Below are positions 12,604 to 42,686 of a stretch of 64,000 bases of DNA, piece after piece. The notes below the pieces were generated by a model that had not been told where the DNA came from, did no database searches, and worked only from the letters and a program-made list of their open reading frames with translations. The DNA is from Bacillota bacterium (GTDB taxonomy: Bacteria > Bacillota > Sulfobacillia > DUSP01 > JBFMCS01), in assembly GCA_040754315.1 (NCBI GenBank), contig JBFMCS010000049.1, forward strand, positions 8,347 to 72,346. Direction: 5' to 3'. Numbering within the stretch: position 1 is the first letter of the stretch; each line of letters begins with the position of its first letter. A program made the translations under genes and the position numbers.

Positions 12604-13587
12604 ATGGCCCGAGGGGAGCCCATGAGTTTCTTAGAGTTTCAGGAACGCTTCTCTACTGAAGAAGCCTGTTATGAGTATCTGTTTAACGCCCGGTGGCCCG
12701 ATGGTTTCGTTTGTCCACACTGTGGCTGCAAAGAATACTACCTGGTATCGCGCCGAAGGCTGTATCAATGCAGGTGTTGTGATTATCAAGATTCTCTTAC
12801 TGCTGGCACTATCTTTCATAAGACCCGTACGCCGCTTCGAAAGTGGTTTTTGGCCATATTCCTGGGACCGCCATGGCCCTCTGCCACCTCGGGCGTTCCT
12901 CCCGTCTTGCCCCTCGCAGCTCCTTTGATGCCCTGGGCCTGGCGGGAATACGCAGCCAAGGACAAAAGAGGCATATCGGCTCTGGCCTTAATGGGCCATA
13001 TTGACGTTAGTTACCCTACTGGCTGCCTGATGTTGCACAAGATCAGGGCCGCAATGTCCCATCGGGATGGCAAGTATCAATTATCCGGCTTCATCCAGTT
13101 GGATGAGGCATTTTCCGGTGGACCCAACGGAAAGCAGGGTCGTGGAACCGGAAAGGCCACTGCGTACGTTGCCGTATCAACCGCCGAGGATGGCAAGCCC
13201 CTCTACGCCAAAGCACTGGTCGTTGACCGCATTAACAAGGAGACGGCCGTTGATTTCGCCAGATACCTACTGCCCGGGTGCGCTGTGACCACTGACGGGT
13301 TGAACGTCTACCCCCGGCTGAAAGGACAGGGCTACGCTCACAAAGCCGTACCCTCGTCCTCTTCTGAAGCTGAGAGGGCACTTCAATGGGCCAATACAGT
13401 GGTATCTAATGCCAAGGCCTTCATATCCGGCACATATCACGGGCCCATGAAGAAGCACCTGCAATCCTACCTGAATGAATACCTTTACCGGTTCAACCGA
13501 AGGTGGTGGCAACCAGAACTCTTTGACCGTCTACTCTCAGCCTGCATAACCGGCCCAATTGTAACCTATGCTGACCTAACTTTATGA
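12604..13587 (+). mobile_element. IS1595-family transposase (N-terminal zinc ribbon plus ISXO2-like DDE domain)
   Basis: CPHCG...CRCC zinc ribbon and a DDE core. Alternative start MSFLEF at 12622. Terminal inverted repeats were not confidently identified. Confidence 0.75.
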
Positions 13588-13674
13588 TCTCCCGCCGGGA
13601 AAACCCACTCTTTTTAAGGGTGGGATGAAAGGCGGCTTGTATCTTTTCGTGCAACACGCTACAATTTAAGCAGG

Positions 13675-14793
13675 GTGATGGGCATGCTTAAGACATTTAA
13701 GTATCGTATTTACCCAACCCTAAAGCAGATTCGAGAAATGAACCAGTGGCTTGAAGAATGTCGCTGGCTCTACAACCATTTTCTTGAGCAACGCAAGGAC
13801 GCATGCAAGCAAGAGCAAAGAAGCATCAATTACCACGCTCAGGCAACAAGCCTTCCTGAACTTAAGGGGCAGCGTCCTTCTCTTAACGGCGTTCACTCCC
13901 AAGTCTTGCAGAATGTTGCTGTTCGCATCGACCTTGCTTTCAAAGCCTTTTTCCGCAGAGTTAAAGCTGGAGAAAACCCTGGCTATCCCCGCTTTCGAGG
14001 CAAGGGCCGGTATGATAGCTTCACCTTCCCACAAAGCGGCTTTAACCTTGACGGTGATATGCTCCGGCTTTCCAAGATCGGCAGCATTAAGGTTGTTCTT
14101 CACAGGCCGATCGAAGGCAACCTGAAAATATGCACCGTCAAACGCTCTGGCACCGGCAAATGGTACGTGACGCTTTCCGTTAAATACGAGCAAGATTTTT
14201 TGCCGAAAAACGATCATGCTGTCGGTGTTGACGTTGGCCTTAATTCTTTTGCCACGCTTTCGACCGGTGAACAGACAGAAGCTCCGAAGTTCTTTCGCAA
14301 AGAGGAAAAAGAACTGGCCAAAGCACAGCGCAAATTGTCGAAGGCTGAGAAAGGAACGCCGGAACGGAAGAAATGCCGGAAGGTTGTTGCTAGGGTACAC
14401 GAACGTATTGCATGGAAGCGTCAAAATTTTGCTCACCAACTTTCACGTAAAATAGTCAACCGGTTCGGCATGATTGCCGTTGAGGATATACATGTCAACC
14501 GCATGCTTCACAACCACTGTTTGGCTAAAAGCTTGTCTGACACGGCTTGGTCGGGGTTCTTCCAACAGTTGGCGTACAAGGCAGCGTGTGCCGGTCGTCA
14601 ATTTGTGGCCGTTAACCCCGCCTATACCTCCCAGGACTGCTCCGGTTGTGGACACCGGCAGAAAATGCCACTGTCAGAGAGGGTTTTCAATTGTCCATGT
14701 TGCGGTATGGTTTTAGATCGTGACCACAATGCCGCGCTAAACATTTTGGGTTTGGGAAGGCAAGCCCTGGAGATTTCTCCTAAAAGCCCCTGA
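13675..14793 (+). mobile_element. tnpB: IS200/IS605-family TnpB (OrfB; RuvC-like RNA-guided nuclease), IS1341-like, no tnpA
   Basis: N-terminal MLKTFKYRIYPT motif, RuvC catalytic residues and a C-terminal zinc finger CSGCGH...CPCCG. Lower GC than the flanks. A 9-bp stem hairpin lies at the stop. Confidence 0.85.
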
Positions 14794-16773: not shown

Positions 16774-17673
16774 CTAGGAGAGGCGGACAAACCTCACGCC
16801 GGCCAGCACCAGGACCCCGCCCACCACCTGGAAGGGGTAGAGCGCTTCCTTCCACACTACGAAGGCCAGGATGATGGCGGTCACGGGGATGAGGTACTGG
16901 AACGCCACAACCTTCAACGGCCCGATCTTCGACACTGCGTAGTACCAGATGGCCAGGGATACCACGGTGGACAGCGCCGTGGAGTAGACCAGGCCTGCCC
17001 ATCCCATGAAAGACACAGTCTCCCAAGCCTGGTTCAATAGGGGGCCATAGGAGGCAAGGCCCGAGATCACTGCGGCGCCCGTCATGGCGTAGGCCGTGAC
17101 GCGGATGGCGCTGTAGCGGTCCAGGACCGTGGTACTGAAGTGGGTGAACAAGGCCCAGCACACGACGGCCAGGCCTATGATGACATCCCCCTTTATAGTG
17201 GCGGAGTTCCAGAACCCATGAAGGCCGGTTCCCTTGGAGGAGGCGATCACCATGACAACGCCGGAGAAGGCTGTTGCCAGGCCCAGGACGGTAAGGCGAT
17301 TGAGTCTCTTGCCCCGGATTATGCCCAGGGCTGCTATGAGGATGGGGCTGGCGGAATAGAGGATGGACGCATTGGCGGATGTGGTCAGGGCCACCCCCTT
17401 GATGAAGAGCACGTAGTCTCCGGCCAGGAACACTGAAAGCGCGGCGAACCTAGCGAGGTCGGCCCGGGTCTTCACGAACCGGTTGCCCTCCAGGAGCACG
17501 CTCTTTTCGAAGAACCGCAATACCAGGAGCATGGCAGGGGCCCCCAGCAGGAGGCGCGTGGCGCCGAATGCCAGCGGGTCAATTTCCTTCAGGGAAATCT
17601 TGACGAAACCGAAGTTGGCCCCCCATATGAGGACTACCAGCAAGAGGAGTGCGTCGTGGCGTGAGATCTTCAA
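16774..17673 (-). CDS. DMT-superfamily (EamA) transporter
   Basis: Ten predicted TM helices, 2x EamA. Confidence 0.7.
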   Translation of the reverse strand: MKISRHDALLLLVVLIWGANFGFVKISLKEIDPLAFGATRLLLGAPAMLLVLRFFEKSVLLEGNRFVKTRADLARFAALSVFLAGDYVLFIKGVALTTSANASILYSASPILIAALGIIRGKRLNRLTVLGLATAFSGVVMVIASSKGTGLHGFWNSATIKGDVIIGLAVVCWALFTHFSTTVLDRYSAIRVTAYAMTGAAVISGLASYGPLLNQAWETVSFMGWAGLVYSTALSTVVSLAIWYYAVSKIGPLKVVAFQYLIPVTAIILAFVVWKEALYPFQVVGGVLVLAGVRFVRLS

Positions 17674-17906
17674 CCGGGATAACCCCCTGCTCTTTCCAGA
17701 ACCCTGCCACTACCATATCATCTCTGGGTCCAGGCTACAACAGCGGCCTTGGCGGTAGGGAGCGCCCGGGGGCCCCGGGACTCCTTGATTCCACGGCTAG
17801 CATGGGAAAGGGCAGGATCTTCCTGAAGGATGCCCTCAGCCTGGCGAGGAATAGGTTTGCTGTTTGTTGCAGGCCAGATATCTCGGGTTGGAGGAGGTCT
17901 CCCAGG

Positions 17907-19184
17907 GTGAAGACGGGCTTGGTCGCATGTCTGGTCGCTATGGCGGTGATGGTGGTGGGCTGCTCCACACCTCCTCCTGTCCAGGCTCCCGGTGTAACTA
18001 CGGTTGTTGTCCAGATGTACTCGGGGCAAGAGGCAGATGCCATGGCCAAGGTCGTGGAGGAGTGGAACCGGCGGCAGGCGAAGGATGCAGGCTTCGAGGT
18101 AAGCCTTGAGACGCTCCCCCAGGATGGGTACTTCGAGAGGGTGGTATCCCAGCTGGCGGGGCGGTTGGGGCGCCCGGACATCGTGCACCTGGTATCCCTG
18201 AGCCTGGGGCGCCTGGAGCCCTACCTGGAACCCGCCGGTTCCCACGTGGACCCGGAAGGGACAAGAGTGGCAACGCTACTTGAGGCCCTCCCCGCTGCCA
18301 CGACAGGCTCGGTCAGGGTGGATGGCAGGGCCCTCATGTTCCCCACCGGTGTCCACCAGCTGGTGATGTTCTACAGGAGTGATCTCATGGAGGAGCCGCC
18401 GGCTACCTGGAATGAGGCCCTGGAGGTGGCCAGGAACCTTACCCAGCGTCACAACTCCGATTCCCCCACGGAGTATGGGATGGCGTGGCCCGGGAGGCTG
18501 GACGTGTGGGGGTTTGCCGCGTACCTGGGCATCTTGTGGTCCTACGGGGGGGACTGGCGGGGCCCCTTGGGTGAGGTCTCCCTGGACCAGGAGGAGGCCC
18601 TGGAATCCATGAAGGTGCTGGAGGACCTCTACCGCCAGGCCGTGCTACCCCCGGGGGTGGAGAACCAGGGTCACGAAGATGTGGTGGAGGCCCTCAGGGA
18701 GGGCAGGGCGGCCATGGGGCTGGCATGGAGCTGGGCCTTTGACACCCTGGCGGACCGGGAGGACTCGCCGGGCACGTGGGACAAGATAGAGATGGCGCCC
18801 CCTCCAGGCGCTGACGAGGGGGAGTATACTACCAGGGGCATGTACCTTCACACCACCGGCCTCGCGGTTAACAGCGCGTCCCCCTACAGGAGCGAGGCCA
18901 TGTCCTTCCTCGCCTGGGCGACCCTTGGCGAGGGTGCCAGGGTGTATGCCCAGGGAGGCGGAGATCCCCTCTGGGCCGGCCAGGACCTGCCTGGCTCCCT
19001 GGAGATGGTGTATCCCTGGGTAATGGAGTATGGGAGGTCCCCGAGGCCACACCCCAGGCTCACTGAGGTCATGCTGGCTGGCTCCAAGTGGGTGCGGAAG
19101 GTCCTGGTCGGCGAGGTTGGCGCCGCCGAGGCCTGCCAGGGCCTGCAAGGGGAGGCTCAGGCAATAACGGAGCCCGGCCGGTAG
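17907..19184 (+). CDS. ABC-transporter extracellular solute-binding lipoprotein (family 1, sugar/polyamine type)
   Basis: GTG start after GGAGGAGG. Signal peptide VKTGLVACLVAMAVMVVGCS. SBP_bac_1-like body. Confidence 0.6.
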   Translation: MKTGLVACLVAMAVMVVGCSTPPPVQAPGVTTVVVQMYSGQEADAMAKVVEEWNRRQAKDAGFEVSLETLPQDGYFERVVSQLAGRLGRPDIVHLVSLSLGRLEPYLEPAGSHVDPEGTRVATLLEALPAATTGSVRVDGRALMFPTGVHQLVMFYRSDLMEEPPATWNEALEVARNLTQRHNSDSPTEYGMAWPGRLDVWGFAAYLGILWSYGGDWRGPLGEVSLDQEEALESMKVLEDLYRQAVLPPGVENQGHEDVVEALREGRAAMGLAWSWAFDTLADREDSPGTWDKIEMAPPPGADEGEYTTRGMYLHTTGLAVNSASPYRSEAMSFLAWATLGEGARVYAQGGGDPLWAGQDLPGSLEMVYPWVMEYGRSPRPHPRLTEVMLAGSKWVRKVLVGEVGAAEACQGLQGEAQAITEPGR

Positions 19185-19301
19185 GCAGCTTCTGCCAGGC
19201 GGTTGGAGGAGATCCCGCCAGGGCATTGAACTAAGACTACCTGGGGCAGGTATGGTTACACTCCTGCCCCGGCTCAAGTTATTAGAGTCAGTCCGGGGAG
19301 G

Positions 19302-20261
19302 ATGATCATGAGCAAGGGCATGAGCCCCAAGAGAATAGTCATGGCGCTGGGGGGCAACGCCATACTACGGCCCGGCCAGGCAGGCACCTTTGAAGACCAG
19401 ATGGAGAACGTCCGTCGCACCTGCCGCCAGGTGGCCAGGGTTCTGAGGCAGGGACACGAGGTGGTCATCACCCACGGCAACGGGCCCCAGGTGGGAAACA
19501 TTCTCATCCAGAACGAGGCTGGCCGGGGTTCGGTCCCGCCCATGCCCCTGGATGTGTGCGGGGCCGAGAGCCAGGGTTTCATAGGCTACATGATCGAGCA
19601 GGGCATGACCGAGGCAATGGAGGAGGCCAGGATAAGGCGGGAGGTTGTGGCCATAATCACCAGGGTGGTGGTGGATGCGGGCGATCCCTCCTTCTTGAGA
19701 CCGTCAAAACCCGTTGGGCCCTTCTACACAGAGGAAGAGGCTCGCAGGTACATGGCAAAGAAGGGTGAGACCTGGAAGGAGGACGCTGGGCGGGGCTGGA
19801 GGAAGGTTGTACCGTCACCGGACCCAGCTGAGATAGTGGAGAGCGCCGCCATCCAGGTCATGGTAGAAGCCGGCTTCCTGGTAGTGGCCTGCGGCGGCGG
19901 CGGTATCCCTGTGGTGCGGGACGGCGGTTCCTACAGGGGTGTGGAGGCTGTCATCGACAAGGACCTGGCGGGACAGAGGCTGGCCACGGTCCTCAAGGCG
20001 AACCTCCTGGTGATACTCACTGACGTTCCCAGGGTTTGTCTCAACTACAGGACCCCGGATGAGGTCCAGGTGGCGCGTTTGACAGTAAAGGAGGCCAGGG
20101 AGTATCTCTCCCAGGGGCACTTCGGTTCGGGCAGCATGGAGCCGAAGGTGAGGGCGGCTGTAAGGTTCGTGGAGGCAGGGGGGGAAGGGGCTGTCATCTC
20201 CTCCCTGGACAAAGCGGTGGAGGCTATTTCGGGGTCCGAGGGCACCTGGATCACGGCATAG
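19302..20261 (+). CDS. arcC: Carbamate kinase
   Basis: RIVMALGGNAI N-terminus and an amino-acid kinase fold. The likely start is the second ATG at 19308. Confidence 0.85.
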   Translation: MIMSKGMSPKRIVMALGGNAILRPGQAGTFEDQMENVRRTCRQVARVLRQGHEVVITHGNGPQVGNILIQNEAGRGSVPPMPLDVCGAESQGFIGYMIEQGMTEAMEEARIRREVVAIITRVVVDAGDPSFLRPSKPVGPFYTEEEARRYMAKKGETWKEDAGRGWRKVVPSPDPAEIVESAAIQVMVEAGFLVVACGGGGIPVVRDGGSYRGVEAVIDKDLAGQRLATVLKANLLVILTDVPRVCLNYRTPDEVQVARLTVKEAREYLSQGHFGSGSMEPKVRAAVRFVEAGGEGAVISSLDKAVEAISGSEGTWITA

Positions 20262-20449
20262 GGTAGCTGGCTGGCCCATTTCCCCAGGACCCTGCTTTTG
20301 CCCCCTGCGTTTGCCCTACCCTCCGGGCAAGGCCCTGGTGATGCTGCCAGGCTTTCTTTCTGTGAAATTGTCATTGTTGAGAAACATTTCTCATCCGTAG
20401 GAAGGGATCCTGGCGCTCCCCGCCGAAACCTAAAGGGGGAGGTGATGTC

Positions 20450-22261
20450 ATGTCATGCCTCCGGCAGGTGGGATCAAAGGTTCAACGCTTCGCTGAGGCC
20501 GTGGCGTCCGCCCTCAAGGTAGAGGTGGAAATCCTGGATGACCAGCTCTACCGCCTAGGTGCTACCGGGCGCGTCAGGGGTCTTCTCAGGGTTAAGCAGA
20601 AGCGGGGCTTCGTCAACAGCCATGTGCTGGCCACCGGCCAGCCTTTCACCTTTTCCCGCCCCGGGGAACACCGGGTATGCGATCCCTGCGATGCCAGGGG
20701 AGACTGTATCTACACCGCAGGCCTCTTTTGCCCCATCATCTATGACGGCAAGAGCGTTGGCGTCATGAGTCTCATAGGCTTTGACGAGGCGCAGCGGGAC
20801 ATCATCCTGGGGAACGAGGTCAGCTACCTCGACTTCATGGCACGGATGTGCGATCTCCTGGCCACCATGGTCTCTGAGCATCATGCCATGAGGGAGCTGG
20901 AGAGAGCCTCCCAGCAGCTGGACACGGCAATCAACGCCGTGAGCGAGGGCATCGTGTCCGTGGACGAGCGGGGAACAGTTACCTGCTTCAACAAGGCTGC
21001 GGGGAGGATCCTGGGTTTGGCTTCCGGTGACTTGCTGGGACGGCCCCTGGGGGAGATCTTGCCCAGCTCCCTGGCCTTGGAGAGCCTGGGAACGGGGGCT
21101 TCCTTGGCTGGCAGGGAGGTAACATACAACGCTGGTGGAAGGCCAGCTACCCTCCTGTCCGCCGCCTATCCACTGAAGGCTGGAGGGAGGACCATCGGCG
21201 CAGTGGAGTCCTTCAGCGAGGTCCTGAGCATACTCCGGGCGGCCTCCCGTATGACCACGGCACATGGGGTCACGCGCTTTGAGGACATAAAGGGGTGCAG
21301 CCGGGGGCTCAGCGAGGTGAAGGAGAAGGCTCTCATAGTAGCGGCGGGGAGTTCCACGGTGTTGCTCCAGGGGGAGAGCGGTACGGGAAAGGAACTCTTC
21401 GCCAGGGCCATCCACGAGGCCAGCCCCAGGAGGAAGGAGCCATTCCAGGTCATCAATTGCAGTGCCATCCCGGAGTCCTTGCTGGAGAGCGAGCTCTTCG
21501 GCTATGAGGAGGGGGCCTTCACCGGTGCCAGGCACGGGGGCAAACCCGGGAAGCTGGAGCTAGCCAATGGCGGGACGCTGTTCCTGGACGAGGTGGGGGA
21601 GATGCCCATCCACCTTCAGCCCAAGATGCTCCGGGTTCTCCAGGAGCGCTGTGTTGAGCGGGTTGGCTCCACCAAGCCCACGTCCATCGACGTAAGGATC
21701 ATAGCGGCTACCAACGCGCTTCTTGAGGAAAGGGTCAAGGAGGGCCTCTTCCGGGCGGACCTCTTCTATCGCCTAAACGTAATACCACTGCACATACCGC
21801 CCCTGAGGGATCGGCCAGAAGACATCCACGTGCTCCTGGAGCACTTCCTCTCCCGCTACTCCCAGCTTCTAGGCAAGCCAATCAGGGGCTTGTCGGAGGA
21901 GGCAAAGGGGGTTCTCACGGCCTACCACTGGCCTGGAAACGTGCGTGAACTCCAGAACGTGATGGAATATGCAGTGAACTTCGAGAAGTCCAGAGTGCTC
22001 CAGGTATCGAGCCTCCCCAGCCAGGTAAAGGGGTGCCGTGTGGAGGAAGCGGGCGCCTCAGTGAGGGAGCGCCTGGCCCGGGCCGAGAGGGACCTTCTCC
22101 TGGAGGCACTCAGAGGCCAGCCGGACAGCGTGGAGGGCAAACGAAGGGTGGCCAGGTCCATGGGGATCAGCCTGTCCACCCTCTACAGGATGATGAAGCG
22201 ACTCGGCGTGCCCGGGCATGAGGGGCACCCGGGAGACAAGCCCCCCGGTGCCGCCGCCTAG
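20450..22261 (+). CDS. Sigma-54-dependent transcriptional activator (Cys-rich sensory N-domain, PAS, AAA+ sigma-54 interaction domain, Fis-type HTH)
   Basis: [15 protein letters not shown] Walker A, a GAFTGA-like segment and a C-terminal HTH. Confidence 0.85.
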
Positions 22262-22265
22262 ACTG

Positions 22266-23393
22266 TCAGGCTGGGTGGGTGCTCTCTATGACGTCTATCC
22301 CCGCCTGGGACAGGCGGGCAAAGAACTCGTCCACAGGGACCACCTGTTCCGGAGCGAAGACACCCCGCTCGGATATCCTACACTCCCCTATCAACTCCAT
22401 GACGATGGCCGCGGGATAGCCCGTCCACCTGGCGGTGGCCCTCAAGGAGCGCCCGGGGTCGCTCACCACCAGTGTCTCGTAGCGTTTCTCCAGCCGCCGG
22501 CCTCCCTGGGTTCCCAGAACGGAAACCCTGAGGGACTTGTTCTCGTCCATGCCTGTGGCCTCCGGGAACCGGCCCAGGTGCCTGTAGGTGAACTCCTTGG
22601 GGGTGACCATCCTTCCCTGGATCTCGACGGGGTCATCATTGAGGAATCCCAAGGTCACCAGGGAATCCATCATTGCAAGGAGCGCGGGGGCGAAGGCCAC
22701 CCGGAAGGTCACCGTCTTCACGCCCTCAATGTGAAGGGGGAGGGTGGCAATTTCGGAGTGGATGGAGTAGAAGCCCTCCACCTCACCCACGGGTTCCGGG
22801 AGGGTGTAACGCTGGCGCCCGCTCAGCGGCTCGACGGTCTTGAACCGGCCGTCTTCGAATATCACAGGGTCCATTGTGACCTCATCCAGGATGGTCGCTG
22901 CGCTGTAAGCGAAGCCCTTGCCACCCCGTGCGCCAGTGCGTATGTGGATTTCCTCCACCGTGTCCAGGGCGCCAGCGCCCTTCCTGGCCGCCATATTGGT
23001 GATGCCGGGGCTGGCGCCTACGCAAAGGACCGCGGTGAGGCCTGCGTCCCGGAACTGCCCGTCAAGCTTCACCTGCTCCTTTGTGAAATGGTACAGACCC
23101 CCCAGGTCAACGTAGTGGGTGCCCGACGCCAGGCAGGACTCCATTACACGGAGGTTGAGTCTATAGACTGCGGCGTTGGCTACTACGTCAACGCCCTTCA
23201 TGACCTCTGCGGTGCCCTCCACATCGGAGGCATCTACACGGAGTGCCTTGAGCTTGGGGCTCCCCAGAGCCCCCACCACCTCCAAGGCCATCTCGTGGTT
23301 GATGTCCGCCACCAAGACCTCGGAGACTGAAGGCGAGTCCGCCAGGTGACGTATTATTGCCCTTGCCATCGCCCCGCTTCCGCCCAGGACCAT
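22266..23393 (-). CDS. Saccharopine dehydrogenase NADP-binding family protein (lysine / carboxynorspermidine dehydrogenase-like)
   Basis: MVLGGSGAMARAI Rossmann motif and a Sacchrp_dh_NADP-type body. The track ORF extends to 23441. Confidence 0.65.
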   Translation of the reverse strand: MVLGGSGAMARAIIRHLADSPSVSEVLVADINHEMALEVVGALGSPKLKALRVDASDVEGTAEVMKGVDVVANAAVYRLNLRVMESCLASGTHYVDLGGLYHFTKEQVKLDGQFRDAGLTAVLCVGASPGITNMAARKGAGALDTVEEIHIRTGARGGKGFAYSAATILDEVTMDPVIFEDGRFKTVEPLSGRQRYTLPEPVGEVEGFYSIHSEIATLPLHIEGVKTVTFRVAFAPALLAMMDSLVTLGFLNDDPVEIQGRMVTPKEFTYRHLGRFPEATGMDENKSLRVSVLGTQGGRRLEKRYETLVVSDPGRSLRATARWTGYPAAIVMELIGECRISERGVFAPEQVVPVDEFFARLSQAGIDVIESTHPA

Positions 23394-23505
23394 AGTCCTC
23401 ACGTTTAGATCCTCCCTTGGCTGTGATAGGTGCTGTTCCATCTAGGCCGGCTCATAACGTGACGGCTTCCCTTCCCCCCTTGCCCCTGCATGGGAGATAG
23501 GTTGC

Positions 23506-24162
23506 CTACCCCCGGGCGAACATGAGCCCTGAGTAGACAAAGTAGAGAGCCAGCAGCATGAGGGCTCCTCCCAGTACGATGAGCAGGCCGCTGTACAGGC
23601 GGTCCGGGATGATCTTGCGCCCGAAGGTGACAGCGGCCGACACCGTCATGAACCACGCGAAGTCCGCCCAGATGTGCCCGAGGTAGAACGCTGCCACGGG
23701 CAGGGGCCTTCCCCCTCCCCAGGCAAAAAGGTAGGTGGTGCCCACGGTGGCCCACCACAGGAGCCAGTAGGGGTTCGCCACGGACACCAGGGCGCCTGAA
23801 AGAGACACCTTCCACCAGGGATAGACAGTGCCCGGCACCTCTCCAGGGTTCTGGAGCCCGGACAGGGAGGGGCTCTTAAGCGCCTGGGCTATCATGCCCC
23901 ATCCCATGTAAAGGAGGATTGCCCCGCCCCCGGTAGCCACCGCTGCCATCACTCCGGGGCTTGAAGCCAGCGAGGCCAGGCCCAGGACGAAGGCAATGAC
24001 CGCTACCATTTCCACCATTGCATGGCCAAAGGTGGCGAAGAAGCCACCCCTGAGGCCCGCCGTGGCGCTCTTCTGTATGGTAAGGGTGAGCAGGGGCCCG
24101 GGCATAATGGCGCCGGAAAGGCCCAACAAGAAGGAACTAGCCGCGATACCTATAATGGACAT
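23506..24162 (-). CDS. LysE/RhtB-family amino-acid exporter
   Basis: About 210 aa with 6 TM helices and a LysE-type N-terminus. Confidence 0.7.
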   Translation of the reverse strand: MSIIGIAASSFLLGLSGAIMPGPLLTLTIQKSATAGLRGGFFATFGHAMVEMVAVIAFVLGLASLASSPGVMAAVATGGGAILLYMGWGMIAQALKSPSLSGLQNPGEVPGTVYPWWKVSLSGALVSVANPYWLLWWATVGTTYLFAWGGGRPLPVAAFYLGHIWADFAWFMTVSAAVTFGRKIIPDRLYSGLLIVLGGALMLLALYFVYSGLMFARG

Positions 24163-24295
24163 GGTGAGGGATTTCTACGCCCCGGGCACCGGCCCCTTCA
24201 TCCTTGCGGCGAGGCTTCTCAAGGCTGACAAGGGCCGTGAGGGGTAAGGCCCTAGAGGGCTAGCGCTACCTGGATCCCTCTACAGGCTTAGCCGG

Positions 24296-24311
24296 TGGTA
24301 CGGTTCTTGCA
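24296..24311 (+). promoter_or_regulatory. Sigma-54 (-24/-12) promoter TGGTAC-N5-TTGCA upstream of the MttB-family gene
   Basis: TGGTACGGTTCTTGCA matches the TGGCAC-N5-TTGCW consensus at 15 of 16 positions. It sits about 45 nt upstream of the MttB start. Confidence 0.6.
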
Positions 24312-24355
24312 CCGCAAATTGCCACCGCAGGCGCGGTGGACATGAATCCAAGGGG

Positions 24356-25807
24356 GTGCCCTTTGTGGGCCTAAGGGGTATGCCAGGCGGCAGTTACAGG
24401 GTCTTGAGCGACGGGGACATCCAGAAGATCCACGATTGTTCCATGAAACTCTTCGAGGAGGTAGGCATCGCTGTACACAACAAGAGGGCCCTGGAGCTCT
24501 TCCACCAGCACGGGGCGGAGGTGGACTGGAAGAGGCGAGTCTTCTTCGCCTCAAGGGACTGGGTGATGTCCAAGGTTGGGATGGCCCCCTCCTCCATTAC
24601 CCTGTGTGGCAGGGAGGAAGCCCAAGACCTGGTGATCGAGGACACCAAGACCTACCTGGGAACAGGCGGCACCGCCCTGAACGTGCTGGACATGGAGACC
24701 CACAAGAGGAGGCCCTCCACCCTGCAGGATATAAGGGATGCGGCTCGCCTGGTCGATCACCTGGAGAACATCCACTTCTTTGTGCTGCCCTTGTACCCTC
24801 ACGACGTGCCCGAAGAGAAGGTGGATGTCAACCGTTTCTGGGCTGGGCTTAGCCACACATCCAAACATGTGATGGGCGGGGTCTATACGAAGGAGGGGGT
24901 CCAGGATACCATCCGCATGGCAGAGGTCATCGCCGGCGGCCGGGAGGCACTTCGGAAGAGGCCTTTCATCTCCATGATCACCTGCGTGGTCAGCCCCCTG
25001 AAGATCGACGACACCTATGGGGAGCTTTTGATGACAGTAGCTGAGCAGGGAATACCCCTGGCCATCCCCACGGAGCCCCTGGCAGGATCAACCTCCCCTG
25101 TGACGCTGGCAGGGAATGTCGCCCAGCTCAACACAGAGGCCCTGGCCGGTCTCATCCTGGCCCAGCTGGTCAATCCTGGTACCCCAGTCCTTTACGGGTC
25201 TGTTGCCACCATCAACGATATGCGGCAGATGGCCTACCTTTCCGGGGCTGTTGAGATGGGGCTCATTAACGCTGCTGCCGCGCAGATGGCTCAGTTCTAC
25301 CGGGTCCCCTTCTACGCTACGGCGGGTATGTCCGATTCCAAGCTGCCGGACATCCAGTCAGGTTACGAAAGGGCCATGACCGCCGTCATGGTAGCCCTGG
25401 CGGGCGCCAACTACATCCACGATGCCGCAGGCCTTCTGGAATTCGCTATGACTGTCTCCTTTGAGCAGTACGTGATAGATAACGACATCATCGGCATGGT
25501 CATGAGGGCGGTGAAGGGCATCGATGTTAATGACGAGACCCTGGCCTTTGACGTCATGAAGAAGGTGGGTCCAGGGGGCAACTTCATGTCTGAGAAGCAC
25601 ACGGTCCGGTACATGCGGAAGGAGTTCTTCTACCCCTGCCTGGCAGACCGGAACAACCGGGATGCGTGGGAGGCTATGGGGGCCAGGGACGCCTGCCGCA
25701 GGGCCAGGAAGGAGGCCAGGAGAATACTGGCTACGCACAAGCCGTTGCCTGTGGCGGACGAGGCGGTCAAGGAGATCAGGTCCAGTATCGACGGGATCGT
25801 CGTCTGA
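24356..25807 (+). CDS. MttB-superfamily corrinoid-dependent methyltransferase (trimethylamine methyltransferase-like, non-pyrrolysine)
   Basis: Full-length MttB-family sequence (DIQKIHD ... TIM-barrel body) with no in-frame amber codon. Alternative ATG at 24380. Confidence 0.8.
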   Translation: MPFVGLRGMPGGSYRVLSDGDIQKIHDCSMKLFEEVGIAVHNKRALELFHQHGAEVDWKRRVFFASRDWVMSKVGMAPSSITLCGREEAQDLVIEDTKTYLGTGGTALNVLDMETHKRRPSTLQDIRDAARLVDHLENIHFFVLPLYPHDVPEEKVDVNRFWAGLSHTSKHVMGGVYTKEGVQDTIRMAEVIAGGREALRKRPFISMITCVVSPLKIDDTYGELLMTVAEQGIPLAIPTEPLAGSTSPVTLAGNVAQLNTEALAGLILAQLVNPGTPVLYGSVATINDMRQMAYLSGAVEMGLINAAAAQMAQFYRVPFYATAGMSDSKLPDIQSGYERAMTAVMVALAGANYIHDAAGLLEFAMTVSFEQYVIDNDIIGMVMRAVKGIDVNDETLAFDVMKKVGPGGNFMSEKHTVRYMRKEFFYPCLADRNNRDAWEAMGARDACRRARKEARRILATHKPLPVADEAVKEIRSSIDGIVV

Positions 25808-25821
25808 AGGAGGAAGAACAT

Positions 25822-26469
25822 GTGAGGGACCATCTGGAACAGATAACCACCGCTGTCATCGACGGCGAAGAGGAGATCGTGGCTAGACTCGTCCAGAAGG
25901 CTGTCGACCAGGGTGTGAGCCCCAAGGAGATCGTCAACGGTGGGCTTGTACGCGGTATGGATCTGGTGGGCGCTCGGTTCAAGGCGGGGGAATTCTTCGT
26001 CCCTGAGGTGCTCATTGCGGCTAAGGCGATGTCCTGCGGCCTCTTTATCCTGAAGCCCTTGCTCGCGGAGGGGGATGTGCCCCGGGCAGGCAAGGTTGTC
26101 ATCGGCACGGTCAAGGGCGACCTTCACGACATCGGGAAGAACCTGGTGGCCATGATGCTGGAGGGCTCGGGCTTCGAGGTGGTGGACCTCGGGATAGACG
26201 TGTCGGCGGAGGAGTTTGCCAAGGCGGTCAGGGTGCACGAGCCCGACATACTGGGGATGTCAGCGCTTCTCACAACTACTATGTCCTATGCCAGGGATGT
26301 GCTAGACCTCCTTAAGGAGGAGGGCCTGAGGAGCAAGGTAGTGGTGTTCGTCGGGGGTGCCCCGGTAACACAGCAGTACGCCTACAGCATAGGGGCGGAT
26401 GGGTATTCCCCTGACGCGGCGGGTGCCGTGGAGATGGCCAAGGCCACCATGCGCAAGCGTTCCAAGTGA
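25822..26469 (+). CDS. Corrinoid (B12-binding) protein, MtbC/MttC-like
   Basis: B12-binding_2 helical cap plus a DxHxxG motif (DLHDIGKN) in a Rossmann domain. GTG start after GAAGGAGGAAG. Confidence 0.8.
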   Translation: MRDHLEQITTAVIDGEEEIVARLVQKAVDQGVSPKEIVNGGLVRGMDLVGARFKAGEFFVPEVLIAAKAMSCGLFILKPLLAEGDVPRAGKVVIGTVKGDLHDIGKNLVAMMLEGSGFEVVDLGIDVSAEEFAKAVRVHEPDILGMSALLTTTMSYARDVLDLLKEEGLRSKVVVFVGGAPVTQQYAYSIGADGYSPDAAGAVEMAKATMRKRSK

Positions 26470-26626
26470 AGGAAAGTGGTGGGGGCCCTCGGTGACGAGG
26501 GCCTCAGGTTCTCAGGACAAAGTCCATGTCGAAATCTGGATGCATTGTCCCGACGCGTGGCATTGAACCCGCCCCTACCTGCGTGTTTCGAGAGTGTGGG
26601 GGGTCCGCATCTCCCAGAGGTGAATC

Positions 26627-29736: not shown

Positions 29737-29970
29737 ATGCGTGTGTCAGCAACCGAACTCAAGGTGAACATGAGCAAGTATATCGACCGCGCCGCCGTTG
29801 AGGACATCATCATCACCCGCAACGGAAAGGATGTAGCGCTTCTCACAAACGTCGAGGGCAAAAAGAAAGACGCGCTCAAATCCCTGCGCGGCATCATAAA
29901 GGGTGCCGAACTCACCCGCGACGAAATCCGCGAGGAAAGGTTGGGCAGGTACAGTGAAAATTCTTATTGA
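29737..29970 (+). CDS. Type II antitoxin, Phd/YefM-like
   Basis: About 78 aa. N-terminal MRVSATELKVNMSKYIDR resembles the Phd fold. Overlaps the downstream PIN toxin. Low-GC region. Confidence 0.65.
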   Translation: MRVSATELKVNMSKYIDRAAVEDIIITRNGKDVALLTNVEGKKKDALKSLRGIIKGAELTRDEIREERLGRYSENSY

Positions 29971-30364
29971 CACCAACGTCATCATTGATTACCTTGCCGA
30001 CCGGGCACCCTTCGCGGATCATTCCGAACAGGTGCTGGCTCTCTGCGAGAGGGGAGAGGTCGACGGTTTGGTTACGGCCAACGCCATTACCGACATCTAC
30101 TATGTGGTGCGCAAAGTGGCCGGGAGAGAAAAAACACTGGAAGCTATCCAGACGCTCTGTTCCATCTTGGATATTGCGGTCGTAGGGAAAGCCGATATCC
30201 TGAACGCGATGGAACTCGATATGCCCGATTATGAGGATGCTCTGGCCGCACAGTGTGCAAAGCGCATTAAGGCTGACTGCATCGTCACGCGCGATGTCAC
30301 CGGCTACGCCAACTCGCCGGTTCCAGCAAAAGAACCTGTCACCTTCCTAAGACAGTTTGAATAA
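29954..30364 (+). CDS. vapC: PIN-domain toxin (VapC-like)
   Basis: ILIDTNV ... TDIYY ... DYEDA ... TRD acidic quartet. GTG start overlapping the antitoxin by 17 nt. Confidence 0.7.
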   Translation: MKILIDTNVIIDYLADRAPFADHSEQVLALCERGEVDGLVTANAITDIYYVVRKVAGREKTLEAIQTLCSILDIAVVGKADILNAMELDMPDYEDALAAQCAKRIKADCIVTRDVTGYANSPVPAKEPVTFLRQFE

Positions 30365-30478
30365 CAAGTAACACCGACGCAAGGCGGCTTTTTTTATCCC
30401 TAGCCGATCTTAATCCCCCTAAAGGGCATAGGAATGGGCCCGAAGGGGCCCGTTTACAGGCATGAAGGTTTAGGAGTG

Positions 30479-31273
30479 CTAGGAATTCAGTAGACTACGG
30501 CGATAGGCGTCAATACTCTTCCACCAGCCAAGGTCCTCCAGTTGGTCCTTGATGCCTTTTCCGATATCCCCCAGCGACCACTGCCATTCACTGCGAGAAT
30601 GCTCTCCGGCCTCCAAATGGATCTCCACGAGCCGGAGTTTGTCCCAGTCCCTGAGCAGGGGGGCTACCTCCCTGTGATCCTGCCCCTTTCTGAGCTCGAG
30701 TTCGATCTTCCTCACAAGATAGTAGGTGAGGAAACAGATCAAGACATGGGCTCTTACGCGCCTTTTCTTGTAGTGGTAGATGGGCCGGATTCTGAGGTAA
30801 CTCTTGATGTTCCGGAAGGCCCGCTCCGCAAGCTGAAGTTGCATATAAGCCTCATGTACCTCCAGGGGACTGCACTCTTCCGGTGGAAGGGACGTCTGGA
30901 GCAAGTACTTACCCTCAAGGGACTCACGCAAGGCCACAGCCTTTTCGTCCACCTCAAACGACAGTTCAAAGAGCGCTTTGTCTTCGGGGGGATCCACAGG
31001 TTCAAGGGGACTGATTCTCACTTTGTAAAGCCCCGTCACCTCAGAGTCCTTCAAGAGGTTGTTTACCTTTTCCCTTAGACGTACCCATGAGTAGTACCTG
31101 CCCTTTGGGGCCGTCTGGGAAAGATGGCCAAGCTCCTCCTCGACTTCCTTCATGCTCTCCAGGGTGTGGATGAACTGATCTCCACGTGATGCCTGCCACC
31201 GGGCCTGGGGAGAGGGATGATCCGCAGGCTCTTTCCCCACATGCCCGAGCGTACATGGCGGGCATCCTTCCAT
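30479..31273 (-). pseudogene. IS4/IS1634-type DDE transposase, C-terminal fragment (N-terminus missing)
   Basis: C-terminal Y-x2-R-x3-E-x6-K signature (YMQLQLAERAFRNIKSYLRIRPIYH). No N-terminal DDE region follows upstream. Confidence 0.6.
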
Positions 31274-33209: not shown

Positions 33210-34568
33210 TCACCCCAGGAGCTCCCAGGCGGCCTCGCGGAATACCTCGGTATGAAAGTCCACGTCCCCCCTTGACGTCACGGGGCACATGAGAGCCATG
33301 TTGTGAAAGGGCGTAAGGAGGATCCCCCTGTTGAGAGCGTACAGGTGCATGAAGCGGTCAAGGTTGCTGTCTCGTGCGGCTGCTGCCTCCCTCCCGTTTC
33401 TCGGGATGCCGGGCTGGAACCGGTATTCCGCCCGGCACCCCAGGCGAACGACGTGCCAGGGTGCCCCCGTCTCGCGGATGACCCCTTCAACGCCCTCGGT
33501 GAACCTCTCACCAAGGGCTATCATGTGGTGAAACGCCTCCTCCGTCAGGACCTCGGAGAGGGTTGCCTTGATGGATGCTATAGAGAGGGCGTTGCCCGAG
33601 AGCGTGCCCCCTATTCCCCCGGTGTCTGACGCATCAAGGATCTCCCCCCGCCTCTTCATCACCATCGAGGCTACCTCCTCGGTGAACCCGTAGGCTGCCG
33701 CGGGAACACCCCCCGCTATGGGCTTCCCGATGGTCACGAAATCCGGGCTGAGGCCGTGGGCAGCCGTGTACCCGCCGGGGCTGGCGCAGATCGTGTGCGT
33801 TTCGTCGATCACGAGGAGCGTCCCGTAGCGCCTGGTGAGCTCCCTAAGGGCATCGTGGTACCCAGGCTCCGGGAGGATTATTCCGATGTTGGTCATCGCG
33901 GGCTCAGCGAGGACGCACGCGACATCCCTATGGGAGAGGGCCTCTTCGAGCGCGTCCGTATCATTCCACTCGATTACCCTGGTGGTAACGGCCGGGTTGA
34001 CTGGGGGCCCCACGTTACCCTCCCTCGGGACAGGGACCCCGTCTTCCAGCGTGATCAAGGCCTCATCAACTGTGCCGTGATAACACCAGTTGTATACCAG
34101 GACCTTCGGGCGATGCGTTATCTCCCTGGCCATCCTCAACACAAAGCGGTTCGCATCAGTGGCCGTGAGGGCAAATTGCCAGTATGAGACCTTGAAGCGC
34201 CTCCCAAGCTCCTCCGCCACCCATATTGCGTCCTCCACGGGCAGCATGGCTGTAATGCCCTTTTTCGCCTGTCTTGCCACGGCCTCCACCGTTGCCGGGG
34301 GGGCGTGTCCCGTCATGGCGCCAGTGTCCCCAAGGCAGAGGTCTACGTAGGTATGGCCATCCACATCAGTCACCCGGGCACCGGTGGCCTCCTTTACGAA
34401 CACCGGGTAAGCCCCTGCCCACTGTGTCATCCAAGGCATGGGCACCCCGCCAAGGAGCGAGCCCCAGGCCCTCCGGAAGAGTCTCCCTGATTCCAGATGC
34501 TCTTTCTTAAACCTTTCTTCCTCGCGGGACAGCAGCCGTTCCAGGCGCGATGGCTTCACATCCCTCAC
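33210..34568 (-). CDS. Class-III (PLP fold type I) aminotransferase
   Basis: GSA-aminomutase / omega-transaminase-like with a PLP lysine region (TIGKPIAGG). GTG start overlapping the upstream stop. Confidence 0.75.
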   Translation of the reverse strand: MRDVKPSRLERLLSREEERFKKEHLESGRLFRRAWGSLLGGVPMPWMTQWAGAYPVFVKEATGARVTDVDGHTYVDLCLGDTGAMTGHAPPATVEAVARQAKKGITAMLPVEDAIWVAEELGRRFKVSYWQFALTATDANRFVLRMAREITHRPKVLVYNWCYHGTVDEALITLEDGVPVPREGNVGPPVNPAVTTRVIEWNDTDALEEALSHRDVACVLAEPAMTNIGIILPEPGYHDALRELTRRYGTLLVIDETHTICASPGGYTAAHGLSPDFVTIGKPIAGGVPAAAYGFTEEVASMVMKRRGEILDASDTGGIGGTLSGNALSIASIKATLSEVLTEEAFHHMIALGERFTEGVEGVIRETGAPWHVVRLGCRAEYRFQPGIPRNGREAAAARDSNLDRFMHLYALNRGILLTPFHNMALMCPVTSRGDVDFHTEVFREAAWELLG

Positions 34569-34572
34569 AGCG

Positions 34573-35376
34573 TCACCTCCCTGGGTTCTTCTCCACCAGG
34601 GCCCCGTAAGTCTCGGGCCTTCGCTTGGCCAGGTAGTCCAGGCCATCCCTCGACGCCTCGTTGGCGGCCAGGTCCACCCAGGCAAACCCGACGCATTCCT
34701 CGTACCCCAGGTCTAGGATGGTGCGCCCCAGGGGGTCCCTCACGCCGCTCCTTCCAAAGAACTTGTACTCCCCTGAGGCGCCCACCGTATTGCACACCGC
34801 CGTGTGAACGTGGTTTTCCATGGCCCTCGCCCTCATGTACACCTCCTGATAAGGCTCGAAGGGTACCATGTTTGCCGTGGGACATATGAGGATCTGGGCG
34901 CCCTTCAAGGCAAGGGTGCGCGCCACCTCCGGGAACTCCGAATCGAAGCAGATGAGAACGCCTACCCTGCCTACATCGAGGTCGAAAACGGGGTAGTCCC
35001 CGCCGGGCTCCACGTAAAGGCCCTCCTTCCCGAAAAGGTGTACCTTCCGGTACACGTGAGCTTTCCCGGTTGACCTCTCAACCACGGCTGCGGAGTTGTA
35101 CATCTTCCCGCCGGCCCCACGTTCGGCAAAGCCGAATACAAGGTTGATCCCCTCTTTCACCGCCAAGTCACCCATCGCCCGGACAAGGGGACCCTCCGGC
35201 GGTTCGGCCGTCCCGGCGAGGGCCTCCATGTCAAGGCCCTGGAGAAACATCTCCGGGAATACGAGGAGGCTCACCCCTGATACGCCGGCGGTCTTAGCCG
35301 CCTCCCCAGCCGCGGCCAGGTTCTTCTTAGGATCAGGGGACAATCTCAACTGGGCGAGTCCTATCTTAAACCTCAC
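34573..35376 (-). CDS. Carbon-nitrogen hydrolase family protein (nitrilase/amidase superfamily)
   Basis: E-K-C triad context (LLVFPEMF ... GVLICFD). Confidence 0.75.
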   Translation of the reverse strand: MRFKIGLAQLRLSPDPKKNLAAAGEAAKTAGVSGVSLLVFPEMFLQGLDMEALAGTAEPPEGPLVRAMGDLAVKEGINLVFGFAERGAGGKMYNSAAVVERSTGKAHVYRKVHLFGKEGLYVEPGGDYPVFDLDVGRVGVLICFDSEFPEVARTLALKGAQILICPTANMVPFEPYQEVYMRARAMENHVHTAVCNTVGASGEYKFFGRSGVRDPLGRTILDLGYEECVGFAWVDLAANEASRDGLDYLAKRRPETYGALVEKNPGR

Positions 35377-35415
35377 GGCAAAACCCTCCCCGGCACCGGC
35401 TTGGCGAAGGACCCC

Positions 35416-36258
35416 CTATTCGAGGAGCCTCCCGTAGGTGCTTGTCCTCCGGTCCCTGAAGTATGGCCACCACCTGCGTGCCTTCCTCACGCATTCCAGG
35501 TCTATCTCACCCATAACCACTTCGTCCCCATCCCGGGAGGACAGCACCGTCACCTCACCGAGGGGGTTTGCAAAGAAACTCCCCCCGAAGAACCGGATAT
35601 CTCCTTCCTGTCCCACCCGGTTGAGGACGCCCACCCAGAGAAGATTCATGCAGGCCTGAGCCCTGTTTGCCAGCGTCCACATCTCCTTGACACGTTCCCC
35701 GGGAACCTCGGGGTGGCTTGGGCCGCCGCCGATCGCCGAGGGGAAGAACACCATCTCCGCACCGTTCAGGGCAAGGCTCCTCCCGGTCTCCGGAAACCAC
35801 TGGTCCCAGCATATGCCAACCCCTATCCGGCCAAGGCGCGTCCGGAACACAGGGTACCCAAGGTCACCCGGCTTGAAGTAGAACTTCTCGCAGTAGCCTG
35901 GCTCGTCCGGTATGTGGTTCTTCCTGTAGAGCCCAAGGAGGCTCCCGGATTCGATGACAGCAGCAGTGTTGTAGAACAGCCCTTCCATGACCTTCTCAAA
36001 GAAGGGCACGATCAGCGTCACCCTCCGGCTTTGAGAAATGTCCTGCATGGTGCTTACGGTGGGGCCCGTAACAGGCTCTGCCATGTCGAAGGACTCGTGC
36101 TTCATCTCCTGCGGGAAATAGCGGCTGGAGAACACCTCCTGGAGACAGATGACCTCAGCCGAGCCCCCCACCGCATCGTCAATGAGAGAGGCCGCCTTGT
36201 CGACGTTGTGCTTTCTGGAGCCGGAACAGGCCATCTGAATCAAGGCAGCCCTGAACAA
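35416..36258 (-). CDS. Carbon-nitrogen hydrolase, N-carbamoylputrescine amidase (AguB)-like
   Basis: HIPDEPGYCEKFYFKPGD motif characteristic of AguB / beta-ureidopropionase-like amidases. GVGICWDQWFPE catalytic Cys. Confidence 0.7.
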   Translation of the reverse strand: MFRAALIQMACSGSRKHNVDKAASLIDDAVGGSAEVICLQEVFSSRYFPQEMKHESFDMAEPVTGPTVSTMQDISQSRRVTLIVPFFEKVMEGLFYNTAAVIESGSLLGLYRKNHIPDEPGYCEKFYFKPGDLGYPVFRTRLGRIGVGICWDQWFPETGRSLALNGAEMVFFPSAIGGGPSHPEVPGERVKEMWTLANRAQACMNLLWVGVLNRVGQEGDIRFFGGSFFANPLGEVTVLSSRDGDEVVMGEIDLECVRKARRWWPYFRDRRTSTYGRLLE

Positions 36259-36289
36259 TGTCTCTCACCCCCTACGGGAAGGCGTACCC

Positions 36290-36397: not shown

Positions 36398-36414
36398 ACC
36401 TGTCATCCCCTTTC

Positions 36415-42660: not shown

Positions 42661-42686
42661 TTGAAGTTTCCCGGGGAGGTGGGAGA

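Follow-up and report, generated by a model that had tools for sequence, protein, structure and literature searches.

A pyrrolysine-free MttB-family methyltransferase and its corrinoid protein behind a predicted sigma-54 promoter in a Bacillota genome, with an active-site signature that differs from that of MtgB

Background

The methyltransferases of the MttB family decide the fate of methylated amines, among them osmolytes and diet-derived quaternary amines, that is, whether they end as trimethylamine or methane precursors or are quietly demethylated. The characterised members comprise MttB, which acts on trimethylamine with the help of pyrrolysine, and MtgB, MtpB, MtcB, MtyB and MthB, which act respectively on glycine betaine, proline betaine, carnitine, gamma-butyrobetaine and phosphocholine. 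Only six substrate specificities have been proven in this family, and thousands of paralogues are unassigned. Here we describe a locus of this kind in a 64-kb stretch of a Bacillota metagenome-assembled genome (MAG); this whole stretch is termed the window, and all coordinates refer to it unless another locus is named. The locus consists of a pyrrolysine-free gene of the MttB superfamily followed by a gene for a corrinoid protein, with a sigma-54 promoter motif in front of the pair and a gene for a sigma-54 enhancer-binding protein (EBP) further upstream.

Structural work on two of the described enzymes provides the frame for interpreting such a paralogue. According to a study from 2026, in MtgB Y97 and F356 hold the quaternary nitrogen of glycine betaine and R312 and H348 hold its carboxylate, and substitutions such as R312L and H348E abolish activity (PMC13080624). 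The arginine equivalent to R312 is conserved in MtcB, MtpB, MthB and MtyB, where it binds the acidic group of the substrate (PMC13080624). In the pyrrolysine-containing MttB proteins, Tyr364 and the Gly110-Thr111 pair are 100% conserved; Tyr364 is needed for the chemistry of pyrrolysine, and the Gly-Thr pair of MttB contacts the corrinoid by hydrogen bonds (PMC9842639).

The regulation of these systems has also begun to emerge. A multi-omics study from 2025 mapped SigL (sigma-54) promoters and sigma-54 regulators in a betaine/MttB cluster of Sporomusa sphaeroides (PMC12456013), and a comparative study from the same year predicted, by computation, sigma-54 regulation of MttB (COG5598) in Clostridia (PMC12316311). 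Sigma-54 control of MttB-family operons is therefore already described in the literature and is not new, and the assertion in the original prediction for this locus that no known system carries this type of regulator is not supported. With a probability of roughly 0.7, we read the window locus as a sigma-54-dependent operon of mttB and corrinoid-protein genes, driven by the activator encoded upstream and serving an unassigned substrate that is not of the MtgB type.

Results and discussion

A full-length MttB-family enzyme without pyrrolysine

Gene identities were established by Pfam and NCBIfam profile searches, PDB matches were used for alignments, and flanking contexts were taken from metagenomic and database loci designated by L numbers. 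The methyltransferase gene (24365-25807, +) encodes a protein of 480 aa that matches Pfam MTTB (PF06253) over its full length (402 bits; residues 13-474 of the 483 read from 24356, profile positions 30-488 of 500). The frame 24356-25807 holds zero in-frame stops, and hence no UAG codon, so that the gene is indeed the TAG-free MttB homologue it had been taken for; its start, formerly placed at 24356, is most likely the GTG at 24365, because AAGGGGG lies 8 nt upstream of this codon and the resulting length agrees with that of the 480-aa NCBI protein P0001. Three NCBI MAG entries (MEW6082151, MEW6082154 and MEW6082155) are identical to window proteins.

The near-full-length alignment of the protein to 2QNE and 7XCL points to a TIM-barrel fold. 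Among solved structures its best match is MtgB of Desulfitobacterium hafniense (320 bits), and in MAFFT alignments it is 34.8% identical to this enzyme and 35.3% identical to the pyrrolysine-containing MttB of Methanosarcina barkeri. Its score against the model of pyrrolysine MttB, TIGR02369, is 501 bits, under the curated cut-off of 525.

A second MttB-family gene is present in the window (56548-58047, -; 499 aa, Pfam MTTB 299 bits), whose product is 27.5% identical to the first and carries the signature S-D-D-F-A-H-D-G. Upstream of this gene is an operon for an ABC transporter of Opp/Dpp type (58199-63999, -) that encodes an SBP_bac_5 protein, two permeases and a fused ATPase, and DUF1850 and NMT1_3 genes come after the methyltransferase gene; no corrinoid-protein gene stands beside it.

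An active-site signature shared by a large clade

The residue columns of the active site were read, at ~35% identity, from alignments to MttB (7XCL) and to the structure of MtgB in complex with betaine (9YCE). The window enzyme displays the signature G102-T103, E237, Y317, M322, H352-D353 and A361. None of the residues through which MtgB binds betaine is retained: the Y97 column holds Gly, R312 corresponds to Y317, H348 to D353 and F356 to A361. As far as the alignment can tell, acidic residues replace the basic and aromatic ones of the betaine-binding pocket. In relation to pyrrolysine MttB, the Gly110-Thr111 pair is kept as G102-T103 and so is the Tyr at the MtgB-R312 column, with Tyr364 replaced by His352 and Met249 by Glu237. 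The column of Pyl334 is occupied by Met322, which is encoded by ATG at 25328-25330. The original prediction had proposed an unassigned N-methylated substrate; the replacement of all four betaine-binding residues, and of pyrrolysine by Met, supports the view that the substrate is unassigned.

This signature is not peculiar to the window gene. The clade was sampled through its best 120 database clusters, which are 55-66% identical to the window enzyme and stem from Bacillota, Chloroflexota, Thermodesulfobacteriota and Aerophobetes. All 120 have Tyr in the column of MtgB R312 and, again 120/120, His in that of MttB Tyr364, and 119 of the 120 have Asp in the column of MtgB H348. Two columns vary, the one of MttB Met249 being Glu in 93 and Ala in 26 clusters and the one of Pyl334 being Met in 87 and Val in 26, and by signature two subclades can be recognised: E-M-A/C, to which the window gene belongs, and A-V-G. 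Genes of the two subclades frequently stand side by side within a single operon, as in L022, L025, L111 and L113. The nearest homologue outside the species is just 66% identical, and among the best 120 homologues no characterised member of the G-T/E/Y/M/H-D clade was identified. By these sequence criteria the enzyme is part of a large clade for which we have found no characterised representative.

The Rfam family PYLIS_3 matches 25328-25427 (+) with 65.7 bits against a gathering score of 38, and the match begins exactly at the ATG of Met322. It was rejected as a recoding signal, there being no UAG and few base pairs in the model, and it probably reflects conserved coding sequence. Such a match in a pyrrolysine-free gene is a caution against the use of this Rfam family as a marker of pyrrolysine.

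The corrinoid protein and its partner functions

The MttB-family gene is followed by a gene for a corrinoid protein of 215 aa (25822-26469, +), which starts with GTG at 25822 behind a GGAGG ribosome-binding site. The protein combines a helical cap (B12-binding_2) with a Rossmann-type B12-binding domain, in which the DxHxxG motif reads GDLHDIG, and both Pfam domains and the motif bear out its earlier recognition as a B12-binding protein. Its best NCBIfam match is MtgC_2, and it falls short of the thresholds of both MtgC models, NF047996 (240 bits, cut-off 370) and NF047995 (209 bits, cut-off 310).

No Pterin_bind methyltransferase and no RamA activase was found among the ~70 window open reading frames (ORFs) scanned, which agrees with the earlier remark that neither a methylcorrinoid:tetrahydrofolate methyltransferase nor RamA is adjacent. 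Of 18 loci of the clade, 8 have a corrinoid protein next to the MttB gene and no more than 5 a Pterin_bind protein, which shows that split systems are common.

Elsewhere in the window (42396-44664, +) genes for a CobB/CobQ-type amidotransferase and a CobA/CobO/BtuR adenosyltransferase lie behind a cobalamin riboswitch (115 bits), and the organism therefore appears to make or remodel corrinoids.

A conserved sigma-54 promoter motif and a recurrent type of putative activator

The region upstream of mttB contains a sigma-54 (-24/-12) promoter motif, TGGTACGGTTCTTGCA (24296-24311, +), with one mismatch to TGGCACG-N4-TTGCW and ~55 nt upstream of the mttB start codon. The pattern TGGYAC-N5-TTGCW has 2 matches in the window, for which 0.11 are expected, and 2 matches were reached in 0 of 100 shuffles. 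Locus L028, from a related strain whose proteins are ~82-96% identical (tblastn), provides a test of conservation: the 18-nt promoter block is 100% conserved there, with the ~20 nt upstream of it scrambled and the intergenic region 87% identical overall. A functional element would be expected to show just this, an unchanged block in diverged surroundings. Transcription of mttB is predicted to start near 24321, and a leader hairpin (CCACCGC-AGGC-GCGGTGG; 24322-24339, +) is situated at this predicted 5' end; in L028 its stem is identical and its loop is changed to ACCT. An 18-nt inverted repeat close by (24242-24259 and 24276-24293) was considered as an activator site and set aside, since L028 does not retain its right arm. 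The other strict motif of the window, TGGCACCTATTTTGCT (48205-48220, -), lies in a lower-GC stretch devoid of long ORFs, near two minus-strand tRNA genes (48802-48883 and 48901-48984) and apparent fragments of a hydrolase gene.

The putative activator is an EBP of 603 aa (20450-22261, +; Sigma54_activat 228 bits). It is built of a weak GAF-like domain (GAF_2) with the cysteine motif C-x2-C-x5-C-x7-C, a PAS domain, an AAA+ module whose GAFTGA loop reads EEGAFTGAR, an AAA_lid and an HTH domain. Its best NCBIfam match is a PrdR-like model at 384 bits, below the cut-off, and the protein is 89% identical in L028. Both parts of the earlier description, namely the near-consensus promoter in front of mttB and the activator with Cys-rich sensor and PAS domain 2 kb upstream, are thus borne out. 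A homologue search with the 282-aa sensor domain returned one irrelevant match and did not recover the activator's own cluster either.

The same arrangement recurs in other members of the clade. In both L111 and L113 an activator gene is followed by a short gap that holds a sigma-54 motif (TGGCATGTCTCTTGCT and TGGCATAGTTTTTGCT) and then by an MttB operon, whose MttB proteins are 60-61% identical to that of the window. Compared with the window activator, these two are 41% identical from end to end and 31% and 29% identical in the sensor domain (E 5e-45 and 2e-42), where C-x2-C-x5-C is retained. In L026 a PAS-type activator precedes a sigma-54 motif and the gene string SSF-HyuA-HyuB-MttB, with an MttB 62% identical to the window protein. 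The motif occurs merely 15 times in 1.15 Mb of fetched loci, and its presence in gaps between activators and operons is therefore not due to chance. The sigma-54 motifs of L010 were rejected as a further example, as they drive a DegP-like gene and the MttB gene there comes after an MTHFR gene. Because the promoter is conserved and homologous activators stand upstream of motif and MttB operon in the same clade, we regard sigma-54 control of the mttB operon as well supported at the sequence level, and we conclude that the window activator probably drives mttB.

The neighbouring genes and their conservation

Between the activator gene and the operon are two genes, one for a saccharopine-dehydrogenase-family (SDH-like) NAD(P) enzyme of 378 aa (22266-23402, -; Sacchrp_dh_NADP and Sacchrp_dh_C) and one for a LysE/RhtB-superfamily exporter of 218 aa (23506-24162, -; Pfam LysE 103 bits). 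Both had been noted as lying between regulator and operon, and they do; both are, however, on the minus strand and divergent from mttB, the SDH-like gene sitting downstream of lysE, and no sigma-54 motif was found in front of them. The SDH-like gene starts with GTG at 23402 behind an AGGGAGG ribosome-binding site, and homologues of its product have 374-380 aa. Neither NCBIfam nor the PDB offers this protein a functionally defined model or a close solved relative; only generic Pfam domains match, the PDB matches being weak (up to 90 bits) and the score against the NCBIfam model of carboxynorspermidine synthase being 58 bits against a cut-off of 800. In NCBIfam the LysE protein has weak matches of RhtB type (37 bits) and to LeuE (32 bits), and none to a basic-amino-acid exporter model.

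A colinear blastn match of 6.1 kb to L028 spans 20368-26470, from the activator to the corrinoid protein, with indels at both flanks; this stretch is a single conserved five-gene block. In L028 the gene after that for the corrinoid protein is an insertion with a NERD nuclease domain, and it was for this reason rejected as a missing component of the pathway. A Pfam census of the 105 neighbours of the 18 clade loci yielded B12-binding (8), ABC_tran (6), Pterin_bind (5), OpuAC and MTHFR (3 each), and Sigma54_activat and IclR (2 each), and none of Sacchrp_dh, LysE and amino-acid kinase was among the 25 families listed. SDH and LysE were also absent from a tblastn search of loci L001-L020. The contexts that do occur in the clade include IclR-MttB-MttB-corrinoid protein-Pterin_bind, activator-SSF-hydantoinase A/B-MttB, MTHFR-MttB-Pterin_bind-MttB-corrinoid protein (L010) and activator-PrpD-MttB-MttB-amidotransferase-OpuAC ABC transporter-MttB. 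Conversely, in 80 metagenomic loci that hold SDH homologues a LysE or corrinoid protein never occurs, and an MttB-family gene is found in only 6 (L029, L072, L089, L098, L101 and L106); these MttB proteins are only 30-38% identical to that of the window and therefore belong to other clades. The original prediction had suggested looking across genomes for a conserved set of MttB, corrinoid protein, SDH, LysE and regulator; SDH and LysE are absent from the 18 clade loci.

Upstream of the activator, and separated from it by a terminator-like hairpin (20334-20351), is an arcC-type carbamate kinase (CK) gene (19302-20261, +; TIGR00746 418 bits against a cut-off of 358), which follows a gene for an SBP_bac_1 solute-binding protein (SBP; 17649-19184, +; Pfam). 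It had been described as an orphan carbamate kinase; it is of true arcC type, forms a pair with the SBP and is not part of the conserved block. L028 has two extra genes between the SBP-CK pair and the activator, the pair being outside the colinear 6.1 kb, and the pair (17649-20261) is probably a unit separate from the activator/mttB block. The carbamate kinase and long SBP_bac_1-like genes of L028 (12289-14612 of that locus) overlap by 4 nt. No gene for an ornithine/putrescine carbamoyltransferase or a deiminase is near the pair in the window, which makes this an unusual partnership.

One further locus connects a related activator with SDH genes. L040 (2-14485) encodes a homologous activator (41% identity) that lacks the Cys motif, followed by Amidohydro_3 and amidase genes, and has sigma-54 motifs before a PotD-type ABC transporter (5317-5332) and, 40 nt upstream, before an SDH-FeADH-SDH-SDH operon (9945-9960). 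It appears to be an undescribed sigma-54-controlled cluster for the catabolism of an amine or polyamine-like compound. Since the block is intact in two strains and L040 pairs activator and SDH in this manner, a functional link between the SDH-like gene and the operon is possible.

Candidate substrates and competing explanations

The residues that differ from MtgB narrow the range of plausible substrates. Glycine betaine bound in the manner of MtgB is unlikely, and betaines held by the Arg312 clamp would not be expected to be substrates at all. Our best guess is a methylammonium compound that acidic and not basic residues hold in place: either an amine or amino acid with a tertiary or secondary N-methyl group in protonated form, or a cation free of carboxylate. 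A more far-reaching proposal, which we put forward tentatively and consider fairly unlikely, is that the G-T/E/Y/M/H-D clade represents the missing methyltransferases for protonated tertiary and secondary N-methyl amines such as dimethylglycine and sarcosine, or for a cationic amine. If this were true, the acid cluster of the His-Asp pair and Glu would do the job that falls to pyrrolysine in the case of trimethylamine and to the quaternary charge in that of betaines. The anaerobic stepwise route from betaine over dimethylglycine to sarcosine is documented physiologically, and no enzyme has yet been identified for its dimethylglycine step (PMC9768040). The proposal draws some encouragement from the pairing of the two subclades in L022, L025, L111 and L113 and in particular from L111, where an OpuAC transporter and a paralogue that carries all four MtgB residues (Y/R/H/F) accompany the clade pair. 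This stretch of L111 (3138-16126) encodes a sigma-54 activator, PrpD, an E-type and an A-type MttB, a Peptidase_C26/GATase protein, the OpuAC ABC transporter and, as its third MttB, the Y/R/H/F paralogue; the locus may be regarded as a candidate for the stepwise removal of methyl groups from a betaine.

The neighbours had suggested a methylated basic amino acid or polyamine, for instance trimethyllysine, with SDH and LysE as partner functions and the carbamate kinase as part of an arginine/ornithine-type setting. The lead from the activator and SDH operon of L040, with its PotD-type transporter behind a sigma-54 motif, and the colinearity of the five-gene block between indel-bearing flanks in L028 keep something of this suggestion alive, MttB-family genes do occur near SDH homologues in six loci, and acidic residues at the MttB site would suit a cationic substrate. 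Nevertheless, we judge it unlikely: both SDH and LysE are encoded opposite to mttB and no sigma-54 motif precedes their genes, neither appears in the 18-locus census or in the tblastn search of L001-L020, LysE accompanies SDH homologues in 0 of 80 loci, and the MttB proteins near those homologues are of other clades. Further, the LysE protein matches no model of a basic-amino-acid exporter, the carbamate kinase is outside the conserved block, and no link between MttB and trimethyllysine was found in the literature searched. The lysine or polyamine reading is thus weak, and the neighbours give little reliable clue to the substrate. That the locus might instead be a plain glycine-betaine system, made up of MtgB/MtgC orthologues under sigma-54 control like the Sporomusa cluster, is suggested by MtgB being the best solved-structure match and MtgC_2 the head of the NCBIfam list for the corrinoid protein, by the OpuAC transporters near some clade members and by the published SigL-regulated betaine clusters (PMC12456013). 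Identity to MtgB is, however, only 34.8%, much the same as the 35.3% to pyrrolysine MttB, all four betaine-contacting residues differ (Y97G, R312Y, H348D and F356A), and the corrinoid protein remains far below the MtgC cut-off (240 against 370). With no betaine transporter next to the window operon, and with L111 placing its Y/R/H/F paralogue at the OpuAC genes while the clade copies carry the other signature, we consider such a system very unlikely.

An extremely improbable explanation is that the gene is a relic of a pyrrolysine-type trimethylamine methyltransferase in which TAG became ATG, leaving an enzyme that uses trimethylamine poorly or is non-catalytic. The score slightly below the TIGR02369 cut-off, the opening of the PYLIS_3 match at the very Met codon that aligns to UAG, and the retention of Gly110-Thr111 and of the Tyr at the MtgB-Arg312 column are what such a relic might show. 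Yet Met or Val at the Pyl column and the His-Asp pair are kept across 120 homologues from several phyla, which therefore form a stable, selected clade and not a case of recent decay; Tyr364, needed for pyrrolysine chemistry, is His; the PYLIS_3 match is explicable by conserved coding sequence and a model poor in base pairs; and the gene retains its own corrinoid protein and a conserved promoter. Chloromethane and dichloromethane were also considered, as the homologues include proteins of dichloromethane fermenters, and were rejected: the known enzyme, CdmB, is of the UroD family and not an MttB.

Several observations weigh against our preferred reading of an activator-driven mttB-corrinoid operon with an unassigned substrate. 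The residue argument is a structure-free one, made from alignments at ~35% identity only, and distant marine homologues that use betaine may also lack Arg312, the column being Gly in L018. OpuAC-type betaine transporters are near 3 of the 18 clade loci. A Pterin_bind methyltransferase and RamA were not seen in the window, and nor was rpoN. Two minus-strand genes separate the activator gene from the promoter; the inverted repeat beside the promoter is unconserved and no activator binding site was identified. Moreover, the homologous activator of L040 goes with an SDH operon and not with an MttB operon, so that the activator here could primarily serve another target.

A proposed course of regulation and demethylation

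The observed gene content, the conserved promoter motif, the recurrence of activator, promoter and MttB, and the residue signature permit a scheme to be proposed. The GAF(Cys)-PAS portion of the EBP might sense an inducer or the redox state of the cell, upon which the protein would bind the lysE-mttB intergenic region and use ATP to open the complex of sigma-54 RNA polymerase at TGGTAC-N5-TTGCA (24296-24311). The resulting mttB-corrinoid transcript would start near 24321 and bear the conserved 5' hairpin at its head. The MttB-like enzyme, with the conserved His-Asp pair and Glu lining its presumed substrate site, would present the N-methyl group to the Co(I) of the adjacent corrinoid protein. 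The methyl-Co(III) form would then be unloaded onto tetrahydrofolate by a Pterin_bind-type methyltransferase encoded elsewhere, and a RamA-type activase, likewise encoded elsewhere, would re-reduce oxidised corrinoid; other MttB paralogues, for instance the one at 56548-58047, probably draw on the same two enzymes. The divergent LysE-type exporter could plausibly expel the demethylated product, and a related amine might be the substrate of the SDH-like enzyme.

Other features of the window

The G+C content is ~60-64% over the whole window, and base composition bears no sign of a foreign origin of the locus, which was considered and dismissed. Mobile-element genes surround the region: to one side (12604-14793) lie those for an IS1595 transposase and a TnpB of IS605 type, to the other (29903-31273) a PIN-domain gene and a DDE transposase fragment; G+C is only 0.55-0.58 in these two stretches. 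Further along, a minus-strand string of genes (33210-39460) encodes an SSF sodium:solute symporter, an Amidohydro_3 protein, two CN_hydrolases and a class-III aminotransferase, and has the look of a pathway that breaks down an N-carbamoyl, amide or amine compound. An Amidohydro_3 gene is paired with the homologous activator in L040 too.

Comparison with known systems

As an example of its clade the locus is compact, with one methyltransferase, one corrinoid protein, one promoter and what seems to be a dedicated activator, and with no residue known to hold betaine. This makes it convenient for expression and substrate screening, and the conserved activator offers a handle on the inducer.

One of the nearest described systems is MtgB/MtgC of D. 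hafniense (2QNE, 9YCE), with which the locus shares the Pfam MTTB domain, the length of the enzyme, the absence of pyrrolysine and an adjacent corrinoid protein. Transfer of the methyl group to tetrahydrofolate through a separate Pterin_bind enzyme would be expected at the window locus as well. It differs in that its MttB is only 34.8% identical and is devoid of Y97, R312, H348 and F356, in that its corrinoid protein scores under the MtgC cut-offs, and in that neither MtgA nor a betaine transporter is adjacent. With MttB/MttC of M. barkeri (7XCL) the window enzyme has in common the corrinoid-bonding Gly-Thr pair, the Tyr at the MtgB-Arg312 column, the motif PFYATAGMSDSKLPD, which resembles PSYVAGS(Pyl)SDAKVPD, a score near the TIGR02369 cut-off and nucleotide similarity detected through Rfam PYLIS_3. 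It departs from this enzyme, to which it is 35.3% identical, in having Met for Pyl334, Glu for Met249, no UAG, and His for Tyr364 followed by an inserted Asp.

In arrangement the locus can be likened to the clusters of Sporomusa sphaeroides KIAC (PMC12456013) and of the Clostridia with COG5598 (PMC12316311), anaerobic Bacillota in which promoters of the TGGCA-N6-TTGC type and sigma-54-interacting regulators drive or, in the Clostridia, are predicted to drive MttB-family genes. There the methyltransferase genes go together with betaine transporters, MtgABC and Grd reductases, whereas the window offers just MttB and a corrinoid protein with a divergent LysE-SDH pair. The MtpB, MtcB and MtyB proteins of Eubacterium limosum, which share MtqC and MtqA, and MthB are likewise pyrrolysine-free MttB paralogues, each with a quaternary amine of its own, and their shared downstream components parallel those that we propose for the window MttB. 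They are set apart by a reported residue, keeping the arginine equivalent to R312 (PMC13080624) where the window MttB has Tyr. The locus hence adds to a well-known family one more uncharacterised member, with a type of control that is already familiar; judged by sequence, its active-site signature is the feature of interest, and the neighbouring genes are specific to the lineage.

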